Source of the DNA: a virus
Length of the DNA: 64,000 bases
IMG/VR virus record: IMGVR_UViG_3300042868_010462
Location: 83,875-147,874 of that record
Strand: one strand, 5' to 3'
The notes below the pieces were generated by a model that made no database searches, had not been told where the DNA came from, and saw nothing but the letters and a program-made list of their open reading frames with translations. Made by a program: the position numbers and the translations under genes. Shown here in pieces: positions 23,782 through 30,237 of the stretch (the first letter of the stretch is position 1; every line of letters begins with the position of its first letter).

Positions 23782-25647
23782 TTACTTTACTTCTTCAAAC
23801 TCTACATCTGAACCTGTAAAACCATCAGTGTTTTCAGTTTGTTCACTCACATTACTATAAAGTTCTTGGGTAATTTTTTGCATAATTGAATTAACATTAT
23901 CTAACGCAGGGTCAATTTTTTCAATTTCACCAGTGTTTTTAGCCTCTTTTAATTCCTCCAAACCTTTTTTAACTTCTTCTTTGTGTTCATCAGAGATTTT
24001 TTCATCCAAATCCTTCAAAGTTTTCTCAATATTAAAGATTGTACTATCAGCCTCATTGATTTTTTCAGCTTTTTCTTTAGCTAATTTATCACTTTCAGCA
24101 TTTTCCTCAGCTTCTCTCTTCATTCTGTCGATTTCTTCTTGTGAAAGTCCAGATGATGACTCAATTCTAATCGTTTGTTGTTTGTTTGTTCCCTTGTCTA
24201 AGGCCGAAACATTGATAATACCATTTGCATCGATGTCAAAAGTAACTTCGATTTGAGGAATACCTCTCATTGATGGTGGAATACCATCTAAATGGAATCT
24301 ACCAATAGTTCTGTTGTCTTTTGCCATTGGTCTTTCACCTTGTATTACGTGAATTTCAACAGAAGGTTGATTATCTACCGCAGTTGAGAAGATTTGTGAC
24401 TTTTTGGTTGGAATTGTTGTATTTGCTTCGATTAATCTTGTCATTACACCACCCATTGTCTCAATTCCTAATGAAAGTGGGGTAACATCCAATAAAAGAA
24501 CATCTTTTACATCACCAGCTAATACACCACCTTGAATCGCAGCACCCAAAGCAACAACTTCGTCAGGATTTACACCTTTTGACGCTTCTTTTCCGAAAAA
24601 CTTCTTAACTGCTTCTTGAATTGCAGGGATTCTAGTAGAACCACCAACCAAAATAACCTCATCAATGTCATTAATTGTCAATCCAGCGTTTTTAAGAGCT
24701 GATTTACAAGGTGCAATCGTTCTTTCAACCAATTTATCAATAATTTGTTCAAACTTTGCTCTTGTAAGTGTTTTTACAAGGTGTTTTGGTTGATTATCAA
24801 TTACCATAAAGTAAGGTAAGTTAATTTCAGTACTTTGAGATGAAGATAATTCAATTTTTGCCTTCTCAGCTGCCTCTCTTAACCTTTGGATTGCCATAGA
24901 ATCATCATTCCAAGCACCATTGTTCTCATTTTTGAACTCGTTTTTTAACCAATCAGAAATAGCATTGTCAAAGTCATCACCACCTAAGTGTGTATCACCA
25001 TCGGTTGATAATACTTCAAATACACCACCACCTAATTCTAGTACAGATACATCGTGTGTACCCCCACCACAGTCAAAAACAACGATTTTAGAGTCCTTGT
25101 TTTTCTTATCAAGACCATAAGCAAGAGCAGCTGCAGTTGGTTCATTGATAATTCTCTTAACTTTCAGACCCGCAATCTCACCAGCTTCTTTTGTTGCTTG
25201 TCTTTGAGCATCATTGAAGTAAGCAGGAACTGTGATAACGGCTTCAGTTACTTCTTGACCCAAATAATCTTCAGCAGTTTGTTTCATTTTCTGTAACACC
25301 ATTGCTGAGATTTCTTGAGGTGAGAATTGTTTATCATCAATCTCTACTCTTGGGGTGTTGTTTTTCCCTTTTACGACCTTATAAGGAACTCTCTTAACCT
25401 CTGACTTGGTTTCGTCATAATTTGAGCCCATAAAGCGTTTGATTGAATAAATTGTTTTGTCAGGATTGGTTACAGCTTGTCTTTTTGCTGGGTCTCCAAT
25501 CTTTCTTTCACCATTGTCAACAAATCCAATGATTGAAGGGGTTGTTCTTTTACCTTCATTGTTTGTTATTACAATTGGTTCTCCATTTTCCATTACGGCT
25601 ACACACGAGTTTGTAGTCCCTAAATCGATTCCAATAATTTTACTCAT
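23782..25647 (-). CDS. dnaK: molecular chaperone DnaK (Hsp70)
   Basis: [47 protein letters not shown]. Confidence 0.98.
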
Positions 25648-25852
25648 ATTTTGTTCGTTTTTGTTTGAATTATATTGTTTATTTTTTATGTAGTCAATTC
25701 TACTCACAAACATTTGTTATAAAAAATTAATCCAAACCTTTTTAACCTGACAAATTGTCAGTTTTAATGACAAAACATAATTTTTTTTATTATTTTTATA
25801 AAAAAATTGATTTTTCTAAAATCTTATCGTATTTATTCCTAAAAGAAAAAAA

Positions 25853-25923
25853 ATGGACATCAATCTAAACAACATATACAATTTTTAATTCATAACCCCC
25901 TTATTATTAGGGGGCTTTTTTTT
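25853..25923 (+). promoter_or_regulatory. Asn-rich leader peptide (MDINLNNIYNF) plus terminator: putative attenuator
   Basis: ORF 25853-25888; CCCCCT/AGGGGG hairpin 25896-25914 followed by T-run. Confidence 0.65.
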
Positions 25924-25953
25924 ATAAACCAATAAACAAAATTAATAACAAAA

Positions 25954-26787
25954 ATGAAAAACACACAAATCTACAACGAGTTAGTACAAAAGATGAGAAA
26001 CTTTTTCCAAGCCAAAGGTTTCTTGGAGGTTCCAACACAATCTAGACTTTCAATCCTTGCCGCTTGTGAAAATCCACATAGCATCACAAAATTTGAATAT
26101 TCAGGTGAAATTTGGCCTTTACCACAAACAGGTCAAATGTGGTTGGAATATGAATTACTTCTAAATCCTGAATTTCCTGGTGTATATTGTATCTCCACAT
26201 CATACAGACAAGAAGCAAACCCAATCCCTGGTCGTCACGACTTAATCTTCCCTATGTTCGAAGTTGAAACAAAAGGAACTAAAGAAGATATGGTTAAACT
26301 TCAAGCGGAAATGTTAGAATATTTGGGATTTGATATTCCAATAGTTGTAGATTATAATGAACTTTGTGAAAAATACGGAACTGAAATCCTTGAAGCTGAA
26401 CACGAAACAAAAATGTGGAATGAAATCGGTGATTCTATCTCACTTCAAAACTTCCCATTGAGAACAAATCCTTTTTGGAATATGCAAAAGGGTGAAGGTG
26501 ACAAATTCCAAAAGGTTGATGTTATCCTTTTCGGTCAAGAAACAATCGGTTCTGCTGAAAGAAGTTGTGATAAAGAAAGTATGAAAGAAATGTTCTACAC
26601 AATCGAAGGTGGGAACTACTCAGCAAAACTTTTTGAATTATTTGGTAAGGAAAGAGTAGAAAAAGAATTGGAACATTTCTTATCTTTGGATTTCTTCCCA
26701 AGATTTGGATGGGGTTGTGGCCTTACAAGATTGGCAAGAGCTTATGAATTGAATCTTACAAAAAAACTTACTGAAGCAATCATTTAA
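25954..26787 (+). CDS. class IIb aaRS catalytic-core paralog lacking anticodon-binding domain (candidate asparagine synthetase)
   Basis: Motif 1 FFQAKGFLEVPT, motif 2 YRQE...RH...F.MFE.E, motif 3 GWGCGLTRL; 277 aa only. Confidence 0.8.
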   Translation: MKNTQIYNELVQKMRNFFQAKGFLEVPTQSRLSILAACENPHSITKFEYSGEIWPLPQTGQMWLEYELLLNPEFPGVYCISTSYRQEANPIPGRHDLIFPMFEVETKGTKEDMVKLQAEMLEYLGFDIPIVVDYNELCEKYGTEILEAEHETKMWNEIGDSISLQNFPLRTNPFWNMQKGEGDKFQKVDVILFGQETIGSAERSCDKESMKEMFYTIEGGNYSAKLFELFGKERVEKELEHFLSLDFFPRFGWGCGLTRLARAYELNLTKKLTEAII

Positions 26788-26987
26788 TTATGGCGAAAAA
26801 ACTAAACCCTGAACCTCAAATGACACAAGATACCAAATCAGAAGTTGTTATAGACCACGGAGATATCATCCAAATATGGAAATATGACAAAAAATTGGGT
26901 AGAAATGCCTATGAAGTGGAAAATGTTTATAAAGGGGAAGCTAAGTTTAGTAAATTAAAAAAGGGGTCGAAATAGACCCCCTTTTTT

Positions 26988-27665
26988 TTATTCTTTTTCC
27001 TCTTTTCCTGAGTATTTAACCCCCATTATTGTACCGATTATACTAAATGCGTTAGTTAATAATATACCTAACATATTTGACCAAGTAGAACCAATCATTT
27101 GTGTATCTTTGTTTATTACTAAAGCCAAAATATACATAAATGTGGTTATAATACCGATAGATATAATAACACCTAATGCAATTCTCACGATGTTACCAAT
27201 TAATTCGGTTTGTTTTTTCTTTTGTAGAACATCCAAATCATTAACCGCTGCAGTTTTGGCTTCTTCTGCTTGGATTCTTGCTAATTCTGACTTGGCCATC
27301 TCTTGTTGAAGTTCCACACTCATTCTTTGGTTGTCTTGTTGCCAAGCAAGTAACTCTCTATTTTGAACTTCGAAAGTCATTTTTGCCTCCTCAACCTCTT
27401 TCAAAGAAACTTGGAGTTCATCCATTATTCTTTGATTTTCAGTATTGAGTTCAATTAGTTCTTTGTTCTTTTCCTGAACTTGTTTTGTTATTTCTAACCT
27501 TTTTTTTCTTGTTTCTTTATCTTTATCCTTACAATTCTCAACATATTTAGCAAAATCAGGGTCATCTGAAGAGTCAATAATCTTCAAAATATTACCTTCT
27601 AAACCAATATTTTTCTTTTCGAGTAATTCTATTAACTCTTGTTTTGTTTCCTTATTAAATTTCAT
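26988..27665 (-). CDS. coiled-coil protein with two C-terminal TM helices
   Basis: Coupled to the response regulator gene. Confidence 0.75.
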   Translation of the reverse strand: MKFNKETKQELIELLEKKNIGLEGNILKIIDSSDDPDFAKYVENCKDKDKETRKKRLEITKQVQEKNKELIELNTENQRIMDELQVSLKEVEEAKMTFEVQNRELLAWQQDNQRMSVELQQEMAKSELARIQAEEAKTAAVNDLDVLQKKKQTELIGNIVRIALGVIISIGIITTFMYILALVINKDTQMIGSTWSNMLGILLTNAFSIIGTIMGVKYSGKEEKE

Positions 27666-28099
27666 TATTTATACACCTTAAATGAGGCAGTTCTTTTTTT
27701 ATAGCCTTCATAATCTTTTTTGAATTCTTCTAATCTAGGTTCGATATCATCAGATTTTATAATCCAAAATTGTGCGCCAGCTTGAACAGCTTTAGCTTGT
27801 TCTTCAGGTTCATTAGATGAGGATATAATCCCTATAACCACATTATTACCATACTCAAAGTTAATCTTTCTAATCAATTCTATACCATCAAAGGAAGAAC
27901 CAATTATATTTAAATCAACAAATACACACTCAGGTCTATCTGAATAATCACCACCCAACCATTTTTGAAAAAGTTTAGCGGCTTCATCAGAACTATTCAA
28001 TGATTTTAGTGATAAACTAATATCTAATAAAGAACAAGCGTCTTCAAAAACTAAATGGAACAAGTCCTCATCATCTACCAACATTAACGAATCAATCAT
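27665..28099 (-). CDS. single-domain response regulator
   Basis: LVDDED, VFVDLNI, ISSS, GAQFWIIK. Confidence 0.9.
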   Translation of the reverse strand: MIDSLMLVDDEDLFHLVFEDACSLLDISLSLKSLNSSDEAAKLFQKWLGGDYSDRPECVFVDLNIIGSSFDGIELIRKINFEYGNNVVIGIISSSNEPEEQAKAVQAGAQFWIIKSDDIEPRLEEFKKDYEGYKKRTASFKVYK

Positions 28100-28113
28100 T
28101 TTTTGTTTTTTTT

Positions 28114-30237
28114 TTATTTTATGTTTATTTTCATTTTAGTACCAATATCATTTTTTTCACATGTAATTTCAAATCCGTGTTCTTCTAAAATTGCAACACA
28201 AATATTTAACCCTAATCCTGTACCACTCTCTTTTTGTCCTTCTTTTCTTGTATATGGTTTTGATAAATGGTCGAAATCTTGTTGAGTGATTCCTCTACCA
28301 TTATCTTGTATTATTAACAAATCCCCCTCCATAAATATTTTAACAAATTTCGTATCAGAATCGTTATATTTCAAACCATTTCTTATCAGATTATCAATTG
28401 ATGTACAAAACAATGACTCATTCACATCTTTAGTTATTAATTCCTCGATATGAACCTGACTTTTGTATGAGGTTGTTGTTAAGTAACTTTCTAAAATACT
28501 TTTTAGATTACATTCTGTTTTATTTAATACAACATCTTTTTTTACTAAGTTTGTAAATTCATAAACACCTTTATAAACTTTTTGAGCATGGCTCAACCCA
28601 TCTTTAATCATTTTAAATGGTGCTGTTATTTTTAACTCCTCTATTTGTTCAATAGTTAATCTTCGTTCTAATGAACTAACTCCCCTAGGTATGTATGTGT
28701 TAATACCTGAGTGCATATCGTGTCTTAGAATCTTTGCTGCGTGTTCTAAATAAGTGTTCTTTTTCTCAATTTCTATTGATTGTGTAATTCTATCAGTTAT
28801 ATCTGTTGCAATTTTCATTACTCTTTGTACTTTACCATCTATATCAAATACAGGATTATATGAAGCTTGAATCCAAACTTTGTTTTTATCTTTAGTAAAC
28901 CTTAAAAACTCATCAGTAACATATTCTCCACTTTTTAACAATTTCCAAAACTCTTTATATTCAGGAGATTTTGAATATTCCTTTGAAACAAAAATCTTAT
29001 GATGTTTACCTTTTAATTCTTTTTCTTCATAACCCATTTTTTCACAGAATAAACTATTAGCAAACATAATTTTACCATCCAAATCAAACTCAATAACCAT
29101 ATTCGATGTATTAATAGCATTCATCCTATTTTTTATATCAATTTCTTTTTTCTTGACTTCTGTTACATCATATCTGATTGACATATACCCCAAAAACTTA
29201 CCATTTTCATCAAAATCACCTTTTATATATGAATCAACCCAATATAAGTTACCATTTTTATCCCTATTTGTAACAATCTCATTCCAAATCTTTTTCTCAA
29301 CGACAACATCTTTGTACATATTAGCCCAAAACTCCTTGGGATGTTTACCCGAATTAACAATACTATGGTCTTTTCCTCTTACTTCATCTAAAGACCATCC
29401 AGATACTTCCTCAAACTTTTTATTTACATATGTTATTCTACCTTTATTGTCCGCTTTAGAAACCAAAACAGATGTATCAACAAACTTTTCGAACTCTTGT
29501 AAATTACCTCTCAAAATATTACTTTCTTTAACCGAATAAGCAAAAGAATATAGTGATGATAACATTTGAGCAAAGTTAACTTCTAATCCAATCCATTCCC
29601 TTAATGTTTTACTCTCAATACACACAACACCAATTACATCGCCTCTGTACATAATTGGAACATCCAACATAGATTTAATACCAAGGGGTTTCAAATACCC
29701 TTCAACAAAACAATATGTTGCGGTATGAGTTTCAGCATTGTTTGCAATAATAATCGGATTGATTTCTAAGTGTTCAAAATAGGCGATAAAATCTTTTTTA
29801 TACATTTCCGCCCCACTATACCATTCATCTTCTTTTTTAATATAAAGTTGTTGACAGATAATTGAGGTTTTATCTGAATTATATAACCAAATTGAACATC
29901 TATCAGCATCAATTGATTCTGTTACTTCCTTTGTTAAAGTTTTTGCCCCATCCTTTACATTTCCTTGATAAAATAATGAATTGTGTGATTGTGATATAAG
30001 AACTTTGTTAAGTTTTTTGGAGTATTGTGTTAATTTTATATTATGTTTTAATTTATTAGTATATTCTTTTACCAAGATTGAAAAGAATGGTAAAAAAACA
30101 ATAAAACAAGATAATTCAATTATTTTGATTAATTGTAGTGCGTCATTTATAAAAAATAATGAAATCATCTTCATTATAAAGAAAATTGACATAATTAAAA
30201 CTGAAAAGTAAATAGAAATTTTAACCTTGATTGACAT
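28114..30237 (-). CDS. membrane sensor histidine kinase (GAF-PAS-PAS-kinase)
   Basis: GAF SMLDVPI; two PAS/PAC; H-box LRHDM; N-box NLIRNGLKY; DNGRG; GTGLGL. Confidence 0.92.
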   Translation of the reverse strand: MSIKVKISIYFSVLIMSIFFIMKMISLFFINDALQLIKIIELSCFIVFLPFFSILVKEYTNKLKHNIKLTQYSKKLNKVLISQSHNSLFYQGNVKDGAKTLTKEVTESIDADRCSIWLYNSDKTSIICQQLYIKKEDEWYSGAEMYKKDFIAYFEHLEINPIIIANNAETHTATYCFVEGYLKPLGIKSMLDVPIMYRGDVIGVVCIESKTLREWIGLEVNFAQMLSSLYSFAYSVKESNILRGNLQEFEKFVDTSVLVSKADNKGRITYVNKKFEEVSGWSLDEVRGKDHSIVNSGKHPKEFWANMYKDVVVEKKIWNEIVTNRDKNGNLYWVDSYIKGDFDENGKFLGYMSIRYDVTEVKKKEIDIKNRMNAINTSNMVIEFDLDGKIMFANSLFCEKMGYEEKELKGKHHKIFVSKEYSKSPEYKEFWKLLKSGEYVTDEFLRFTKDKNKVWIQASYNPVFDIDGKVQRVMKIATDITDRITQSIEIEKKNTYLEHAAKILRHDMHSGINTYIPRGVSSLERRLTIEQIEELKITAPFKMIKDGLSHAQKVYKGVYEFTNLVKKDVVLNKTECNLKSILESYLTTTSYKSQVHIEELITKDVNESLFCTSIDNLIRNGLKYNDSDTKFVKIFMEGDLLIIQDNGRGITQQDFDHLSKPYTRKEGQKESGTGLGLNICVAILEEHGFEITCEKNDIGTKMKINIK

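Follow-up and report, generated by a model that had tools for sequence, protein, structure and literature searches.

An asparagine-codon leader and terminator conserved before a stand-alone AsnRS-like gene of lake-water phages, with a possible role in pyrimidine synthesis

Why should a phage place a very short, asparagine-rich reading frame and a transcription terminator directly in front of a gene that looks like a truncated tRNA synthetase? The question is raised by a locus in the right-hand 64 kb (positions 83,875 to 147,874, hereafter the window) of the 147,874-base IMG/VR record IMGVR_UViG_3300042868_010462, whose completeness is estimated at ~50%. Here a mini-open reading frame (mini-ORF) of 11 codons, four of which encode asparagine (Asn), is followed by an intrinsic terminator and then by the gene for a catalytic core resembling asparaginyl-tRNA synthetase (AsnRS). 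The leader is a real, conserved and Asn-specific element. For the locus as a whole we tentatively favour, with a confidence that falls a little short of even, a translation-coupled attenuator of the E. coli pyrE/pyrBI type, written in Asn codons and standing before an AsnRS-derived adenylate-forming enzyme that would most likely feed dihydroorotate into pyrimidine synthesis. The locus is made up of the following parts.

25807..25837, plus strand: promoter-like site (TTG, a 20-nt spacer and TATTTATT), a motif that is common before window genes and kept in relatives
25853..25888, plus strand: leader mini-ORF of 11 codons and a stop (ATG at 25853, TAA at 25886-25888)
25896..25923, plus strand: intrinsic terminator (the attenuator), a hairpin plus T8
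25954..26787, plus strand: gene for a 277-aa stand-alone catalytic core of a class IIb aminoacyl-tRNA synthetase, AsnRS-like

The mini-ORF reads M-D-I-N-L-N-N-I-Y-N-F, with its Asn codons at 25862, 25868, 25871 and 25880, and its stop lies 7 nt (25889-25895) before the terminator stem, exactly as described in an initial annotation of this DNA. The stem is formed by C25896-C25900 and G25910-G25914 (five G-C pairs, plus A-U pairs) and is followed by T8 at 25916-25923, and the hairpin folds at -11.3 kcal/mol. Terminator-like sites in the 1.9 kb around the locus number three against 1.0 expected, and the plus strand has nothing else that would need the one at 25896-25923, the upstream dnaK gene being on the other strand. 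A TATTTAT[AT] motif is found ~10-20 nt 5' of the ATG of many window genes, often right after the terminator of the preceding gene, and the leader ATG stands at the same spacing from its copy as do the ATGs of real genes. The enzyme gene starts (25954) 30 nt 3' of the T-tract, and since no promoter motif was found between the terminator and the gene, every transcript of the enzyme gene must cross both the mini-ORF and the terminator. A metatranscriptome contig (X17) with two mismatches spans 25837-26003; it starts just behind the promoter motif, crosses mini-ORF and terminator and ends within the gene. This is a weak hint of read-through, as assembled contigs cannot show ends, strand or level. 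An Rfam scan of 25600-26100 (E up to 10) returned no T-box or riboswitch and only sub-threshold matches, the best of which was Phe_leader (21.8 bits against 55, E 0.3).

Homologues of the 277-aa protein number at least 8000 in a large protein collection, with identities of 73-100% among the best 120, and IMG/VR has at least 587 loci with the enzyme gene. Conservation of the leader was assessed in 79 loci whose proteins are 70-100% identical, by reading the 200-300 bases upstream of each gene. A G+C-rich hairpin with a T-tract lies 10-50 nt 5' of the gene in 78 of the 79 loci, and its stems vary by clade (CCCCC/GGGGG, CCTCC/GGAGG, CCCTTC/GAAGGG, CCTGACA/TGTCAGG and others): the structure of the attenuator persists while its stem sequence changes. 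The 10-50 nt between terminator and gene offer no room or motif for a second promoter in these related loci either. An equivalent mini-ORF is present in 69 of the 78 terminator-bearing loci; its ATG is spaced 8-32 nt from the first base of a TATTTAT-like motif, it has 8-26 codons and its stop is near the hairpin. Shorter elements recur as well. CGAAA is conserved in several leaders, and 38 of 62 unique upstream regions have GCCC or ACCC right after the attenuator T-tract, a place taken by ATAAACC in the window clade; we found neither a pairing partner nor a role for this [GA]CCC element.

Is the frame read, and is it really asparagine that marks it? The position of the stop was examined by shuffling the bases between ATG and hairpin in eight leaders whose peptides are less than 50% alike, and which can be taken as conservatively independent. 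The first in-frame stop of the shuffled leaders fell within -14 to +15 nt of the stem in 6-44% of cases per leader, giving a product of 2.8e-7. When AAY triplets were counted by frame in 44 unique leaders, 141 were in the leader frame and 31 and 30 in the other two; the corresponding counts for 11 group representatives were 35, 9 and 9, and AAR triplets were spread without preference (24, 14 and 26). A stop-free, first-order Markov model with the leaders (50% A) as its training set predicted 19.4 ± 4.1 Asn for the 11 representatives, where 35 are seen, a number that was reached in none of 2000 runs. For the eight conservative representatives, Asn accounts for 29 of 115 codons against 13.6 expected (z 4.6, again 0 of 2000), and no other residue, Lys, Ile, Tyr, His and Asp included, exceeds its expected number. 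The background frequency of Asn is 6.0% in phage proteins and 6.6% in their first 14 residues, and not one of 436 phage proteins has four or more Asn in residues 2-11. Because simulations, other residues and the N-termini of real proteins all fail to match the leaders, the enrichment is specific to Asn and goes beyond base composition. The choice between AAT and AAC in the leaders (98:43) is close to that in genes (693:217). An excess of all NAY codons, as a connection with queuosine would have it, was considered and rejected, the excess coming from Asn alone, with none for Tyr, His or Asp. The initial annotation had named conservation of the leader as a check on its reading; hairpin, frame and in-frame Asn enrichment all bear that conservation out.

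These results speak to an explanation in which the mini-ORF is incidental and the terminator either leaks constitutively, as a valve, or is acted on by an antitermination protein, from phage or host, that times expression. A short, A-rich and unstructured leader could carry a protein-binding site, for which the CGAAA and [GA]CCC elements are at hand, and it is in keeping with such a device that neither an antiterminator nor a conserved pause hairpin is present and that the leaders of some clades are poor in Asn. However, the frame is open from a promoter-proximal ATG up to the hairpin in independent clades, beyond what shuffling would yield, and AAY is enriched four-fold in the leader frame alone, which would be unexpected if that frame were not read. 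We therefore regard the leak valve as unlikely, and conclude that the mini-ORF matters as a reading frame, one that, from its sequence, we infer to be translated.

A translated leader could also act through its peptide. In a TnaC-like device the nascent chain would sense free Asn or a pathway metabolite, arrest the ribosome near the stop and so mask the hairpin, and there are indeed recurrent peptide motifs across clades (N-L-x-N and L-R-N-x-Y-x-N) as well as a stop codon at the foot of the hairpin. Yet these motifs are mainly the Asn codons themselves, the C-terminal residues beside the stop vary widely and so do the lengths of the leaders, which makes a sensing peptide very improbable.

How, then, might translation of the mini-ORF affect the terminator? 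No antiterminator was found, in line with the initial annotation: in the window the leader together with the 5' arm of the terminator folds at -0.5 kcal/mol and leaves the arm unpaired, and the mean over 48 leaders is -1.6 kcal/mol, against a mean of -12.6 kcal/mol for the terminators. The 5' arm is fully unpaired in 32 of the 48 (window included) and partly paired, in weak folds, in the rest; leader composition is 50% A, 27% U and 8% G. Five loci (L030, L031, L037, L071 and L075) have an extra internal hairpin in the leader (-5.6 to -12.1 kcal/mol), upstream of the terminator, and these hairpins might be polymerase pause sites that synchronise transcription and translation.

What distinguishes the possible modes of control is the distance of the codons from the stem. 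Toeprinting and footprinting show that a ribosome shields ~12-13 nt of mRNA downstream of the first A-site base. The stop begins at a median of 1 nt upstream of the stem (range -14 to +15), and no more than 13 nt from it in 47 of 48 distinct leaders, whereas the last Asn codon lies at a median of 16 nt before it; in the window the two are at -10 and -16, respectively. Given the reach of ~12-13 nt, a ribosome at the stop would cover part or all of the 5' arm, and at most of the Asn codons it would not. Transcription would begin at the TATTTATT promoter and cross the mini-ORF and then the terminator on its way to the gene. A ribosome finishing the mini-ORF would occupy the 5' arm just as the polymerase makes the 3' arm and the U-tract, so that no hairpin would form and the polymerase would read through; if the ribosome were late, whether from slow decoding of Asn or from poor translation generally, the hairpin would form and transcription would end. 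The enzyme would thus be made while Asn-tRNA is plentiful, and a shortage of Asn would turn the gene off.

This predicted sign of control is the opposite of induction by shortage. The initial annotation had proposed a phage asparagine synthetase whose gene is induced when Asn-tRNA runs short, a ribosome stalled on the Asn codons occluding the hairpin. Such a switch would account for the Asn-specific enrichment in the frame, and in 21 of 47 leaders no more than 13 nt do in fact separate the last Asn codon from the stem. With the last Asn codon of the window, and that of the median leader, out of reach of the stem and the stop within reach, however, slow decoding of Asn would be expected to favour termination, not induction. 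The other half of that proposal, the identity of the enzyme, is taken up below.

The arrangement can be compared with two kinds of known attenuator. In E. coli, rph ends ~10 nt before the hairpin of pyrE, and when the rph-1 frameshift ends translation prematurely, pyrE expression falls; at pyrBI, the leader frame (pyrL) extends through the terminator. The phage locus resembles both in having an intrinsic terminator and no antiterminator, a frame that ends near or in the hairpin at a non-random position, and a regulated gene that is part of pyrimidine synthesis (E. coli) or linked to it (phage). Read-through in E. coli needs a ribosome close behind the polymerase, and the geometry of the phage leaders suggests the same. 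In two loci (L054 and L059) the mini-ORF is replaced by an ordinary upstream protein gene that ends 16 nt before the hairpin, in the manner of rph-pyrE. The phage device differs in that its frame is a mini-ORF of 8-26 codons enriched in Asn, that the 5' end of its mRNA is very short and has no Shine-Dalgarno-like sequence, and that it has no conserved U-rich pause tract, a U-run being present in some clades only. Since the frame is enriched in Asn and a U-rich tract is lacking, the input is probably the speed of the ribosome on Asn codons, not UTP-dependent pausing.

A true nucleotide sensor of the pyrBI/pyrE kind, in which the speed of the polymerase (the UTP or ATP level) and not Asn-tRNA sets the coupling, would nevertheless have the same geometry as rph-pyrE and pyrL-pyrBI, would suit an enzyme family linked to pyrimidine synthesis, and could make use of the U5 run that stands just before the hairpin in the window and in some relatives. 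It would leave the frame-specific enrichment of Asn unexplained, and the leaders, rich in A with 27% U, do not conserve a U-rich tract before the hairpin; we hold it to be quite unlikely. With the amino-acid leaders trpL, hisL, pheL, thrL and leuL the phage locus has in common a short frame rich in one regulatory amino acid, here of predicted translation, and an intrinsic terminator between this frame and a metabolic gene. It departs from them in having neither an antiterminator nor a pause (1:2) helix, and in its predicted sign, which is inverted in that scarcity would switch the gene off. The literature that we searched, of which our coverage was incomplete, contained no Asn-codon leader or attenuator, and we know of no Asn-codon leader.

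What does the leader control? The 277-aa protein matches Pfam tRNA-synt_2 (PF00152) at profile positions 22-289 of 308 (E 1.2e-15, 57.8 bits against a cut-off of 25); the match is limited to the catalytic part and an anticodon-binding domain is absent, which agrees with the truncated class IIb core first described for this gene. The class II motifs are intact (Y-R-x-E, G-R-H, E-T-I-G-S-A-E-R and G-x-G-L-T-R-L). An AlphaFold2 model built on a 58-sequence alignment has a predicted local distance difference test score (pLDDT) of 97, and a Foldseek search with this model listed AsnRS first (T. thermophilus, P. horikoshii and human; E ~1e-17 to 1e-18) and aspartyl-tRNA synthetase (AspRS) next, with archaeal asparagine synthetase A at rank 37-44 (3rl6/3reu, template-modelling (TM) scores of 0.70-0.72). 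A profile of the family searched against PDB sequences found AsnRS (4e-15), archaeal AspRS (2e-13), asparagine synthetase A (3p8t, 7e-7) and EpmA (2e-4), and had no match to AsnA. In the pocket, Leu-Glu in Q-T-G-Q-M-W-L-E and Glu in F-E-V-E have the AsnRS form at two positions that discriminate it from AspRS, which has Lys-Gln and Asp there, and the side-chain arginine in G-S-A-E-R is kept.

All curated NCBIfam models were missed by a factor of at least 10 in bits. This holds for the AsnRS models TIGR00457/NF003037 (36.1 bits against 414 and 28.1 against 342.6), for those of archaeal asparagine synthetase A (PRK06462; 19.6 against 389 for NF005055 and 15.2 against 322 for NF005053) and for the EpmA model TIGR00462 (18.1 against 286.9), and the protein-level match to the asparagine synthetase A family is weak (E 4e-4). 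By its profile and fold scores the protein belongs to a separate family of stand-alone AsnRS-like cores, which comprises 651 clusters at 50% identity (E up to 0.001), and the core is a predicted adenylate-forming enzyme. It is similar in build to archaeal asparagine synthetase A (AS-AR, 3P8T) and to E. coli AsnA, i.e., stand-alone class II cores of ~280-330 aa, derived from AsnRS/AspRS and free of an anticodon domain, and like them the phage enzyme is presumably adenylate-forming and tRNA-independent; it differs in its remote sequence similarity to AS-AR and in the context of its family, which is that of PyrD/E/F and of genomes without AsnRS. EpmA (PoxA, GenX), the lysine ligase of elongation factor P (EF-P), is likewise a stand-alone class IIb core, but one derived from lysyl-tRNA synthetase (LysRS), whereas the pocket motifs of the phage family are AsnRS-like. 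An EpmA-like enzyme, which the initial annotation had set as its own alternative, is thus disfavoured by model score, profile score and pocket alike.

Genomic context gives the family a strong link to pyrimidine synthesis. Two distant members are fusions, namely P0125, of PyrD (dihydroorotate dehydrogenase) with the core, and P0154, of the core with PyrF (orotidine monophosphate (OMP) decarboxylase); P0154 was not found in viral contigs. The window protein is 50% identical to the core of P0125, and, aligned end to end with one gap of one residue, 57% identical to the protein of locus L084, where the core adjoins OMP decarboxylase, a PyrD-PyrE fusion and a second phosphoribosyltransferase. In L086 it adjoins the PyrD-PyrE fusion and a second phosphoribosyltransferase, a major facilitator superfamily (MFS) transporter lies upstream, and the OMP decarboxylase match is elsewhere on the chromosome. 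The family also occurs in small bacterial genomes (0.8-1.7 Mb), among them one metagenome-assembled genome (MAG) titled Candidatus Babeliaceae and another titled Patescibacteria.

Gene families were counted in 151 genomes sampled from one phylum, 21 of which have the core. DHO_dh (E up to 1e-8) is present in 19 genomes, 16 of them with the core and mostly within 3 kb of it, and a strong OMP decarboxylase match (E up to 1e-44) in 14; 13 of these also carry the core, in most cases as a direct neighbour. The N-domain of aspartate carbamoyltransferase (ATCase) was found in none of the 151, and Amidohydro_1 (dihydroorotase-type) in 16, none with the core or DHO_dh. A two- or three-gene PyrD/PyrE/PyrF block adjoins the core in 14 of 18 loci, and there is no other consistent neighbour. 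Five core-bearing genomes were checked further (G007, G009, G102, G122 and G130): carbamoyl-phosphate synthetase (CPSase, CarB) is absent, and AspRS and LysRS are present but no AsnRS above cut-off, so that Asn-tRNA is presumably made by the indirect route. A strong AsnB nevertheless occurs in G009, and in G009 only (E 4e-95). In short, core-bearing genomes have the last three steps to uridine monophosphate (UMP) and lack the first three, and the core travels with the last three. From this context the family probably supplies PyrD with its substrate, dihydroorotate. It would take the slot in the pathway before PyrD where CPSase, ATCase and PyrC (dihydroorotase) are all absent, and differs from PyrC in being a class II adenylate-forming core and not a zinc amidohydrolase, of unrelated fold and chemistry. 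One locus stands apart: in L082 (a 108-kb contig of a MAG titled Candidatus Neomarinimicrobiota) the neighbours of the core are not pyr genes but those for an Erv1/Alr sulfhydryl oxidase, RNase HII, a patatin-like protein and an exonuclease, although ATCase, amidohydrolases and PyrD are encoded in that genome. This contig might be of viral origin or wrongly binned.

The same context weighs on the proposed asparagine synthetase. Since the core-bearing genomes that were checked have no AsnRS, and need no free Asn for charging, an asparagine synthetase that serves tRNA charging makes little sense there, and homologues 50-57% identical to the window protein are fused to or clustered with PyrD/E/F in them. 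In favour of such an enzyme are the AsnRS-like core, as in archaeal asparagine synthetase A, and the weak matches to that family reported above, which stay far below the curated cut-offs. The absence of a tRNA-Asn gene, which the initial annotation had seen in the window, extends to the whole 148-kb record, but this is about half a genome, from which Ser, Gly, Ala and Val tRNAs are absent too, and a complete relative (G001) has tRNA-Asn(GTT). Lack of tRNA-Asn as a trait of the clade was rejected on account of that relative. Taken with the geometry of the leader, all this leaves an asparagine synthetase induced by Asn shortage improbable. What stands of the initial interpretation is the conserved Asn-codon leader with its terminator and the AsnRS-like core; the identity assigned to the enzyme and the sign of control probably do not.

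Under the reading we favour, a pyrE/pyrBI-type attenuator in Asn codons, a gate that opens only while Asn codons are read briskly would be sensible because the enzyme would draw Asp or Asn for nucleotides. For an enzyme that makes Asn, a gate of the opposite kind would be called for, and the fit between a predicted switch and a predicted role is no more than suggestive. A bolder version holds that the core is a one-enzyme, ATP-using bypass of CPSase, ATCase and dihydroorotase, which makes dihydroorotate from an Asp-family compound, with the Asn leader as a gate on the substrate; at this level of detail we think the proposal unlikely to hold. Two candidate reactions can be named. The first would start from L-asparagine and CO2 and close the ureido ring via an adenylated N-carboxy intermediate. 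The second would close the ring of N-carbamoyl-aspartate, imported or host-made, via a beta-acyl-adenylate, which can be likened to the chemistry of AsnA with an internal nitrogen as the nucleophile instead.

Several observations count against the favoured reading, some touching the leader and others the enzyme. The frame extends through the hairpin in a few loci (L028, L060 and L068), and the clade with this arrangement is Asn-poor; two 9-codon leaders (the L077 type, and that of L112, L113 and L116) have no Asn at all. More distant phage clades have the gene without the leader: in L102-L107 (54% identity) it abuts the preceding gene with no leader device, and in L115, L117, L119, L120 and L124 (~65% identity to the query, P0121) a hairpin is followed by A10 and then by TTTCT directly before the ATG. 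This latter element, which lies ~40 nt before the gene on contigs that reach 465 kb, forms no terminator on either strand and no frame, and might act in translation. Because a ribosome stalled on the last Asn codon might reach the stem wherever that codon is 13 nt or less away, the termination-favouring sign is less safe for ~45% of leaders. The very short length of the leaders is a further difficulty, and a conserved pause site that would time ribosome and polymerase was not found in them. The RNA-library data consist of assembled contigs alone. As for the enzyme, N-carbamoyl-aspartate is not an obvious ligand for an AsnRS-like pocket, whose acidic residues bind a free amino group, and PyrD and PyrF are absent from four complete relative phage genomes. 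Since these phages lack PyrD and PyrF, the phage enzyme would push the pathway of the host.

The surroundings of the locus add the following features.

23782-25713, minus strand: full-length DnaK gene, which flanks the attenuated gene
25747..25761, no strand assigned: perfect palindrome CTGACA-AAT-TGTCAG, then TTTT, between dnaK and the leader promoter
26790..26975, plus strand: 61-aa ORF with no family match, 2 nt 3' of the enzyme gene and sharing its terminator
26963..26989, plus strand: terminator closing the transcription unit
27665-30237, minus strand: 707-aa ORF (looks like a membrane sensor histidine kinase) and 144-aa ORF (response-regulator-like), judged from their translations

The attenuated gene thus stands between dnaK, which lies directly upstream of the leader region, and the pair of histidine-kinase-like and response-regulator-like ORFs. 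The 61-aa ORF is kept at 67-87% identity in the closest clade only (L002-L022), and this limited conservation led us to reject it as a substrate or partner protein of the enzyme. The palindrome occurs once in the 148-kb record and once in G001, and a near-identical one (TCCTGACA-ATT-GTCAGGA) forms the attenuator stem in L046, L047, L058, L066 and L073; it may be an operator, or the relic hairpin of an older attenuator. The window has a G+C content of 30.6%, relatives of its phage measure 294-322 kb and have terminal repeats, and the DNA runs in which the stretch occurs come from lake-water and freshwater metagenomes.

In our classification, the locus combines a variant form of translation-coupled attenuation with an enzyme family that is uncharacterised and strongly linked to pyrimidine synthesis. 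Within the same incomplete coverage, the literature contained nothing relevant on a phage asparagine synthetase, on this family, on a pyrimidine enzyme resembling an aminoacyl-tRNA synthetase, on how Dependentiae make pyrimidines or on the absence of dihydroorotase. The gene is among the commonest unexplained "tRNA-synthetase-like" genes of these phages. If our reading is correct, the leader attenuates through amino-acid codons with no antiterminator, its logic is inverted, and it is conserved over hundreds of lake-water jumbo-phage contigs. The enzyme, if it is the missing one that feeds PyrD, would extend a textbook pathway by a new reaction, and the auxiliary metabolic genes of phages by a new class. 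In the bolder version, the two together would let the phage divert Asn or Asp to nucleotides only when translation is not starved of Asn, and bypass the feedback-regulated steps of the pathway.

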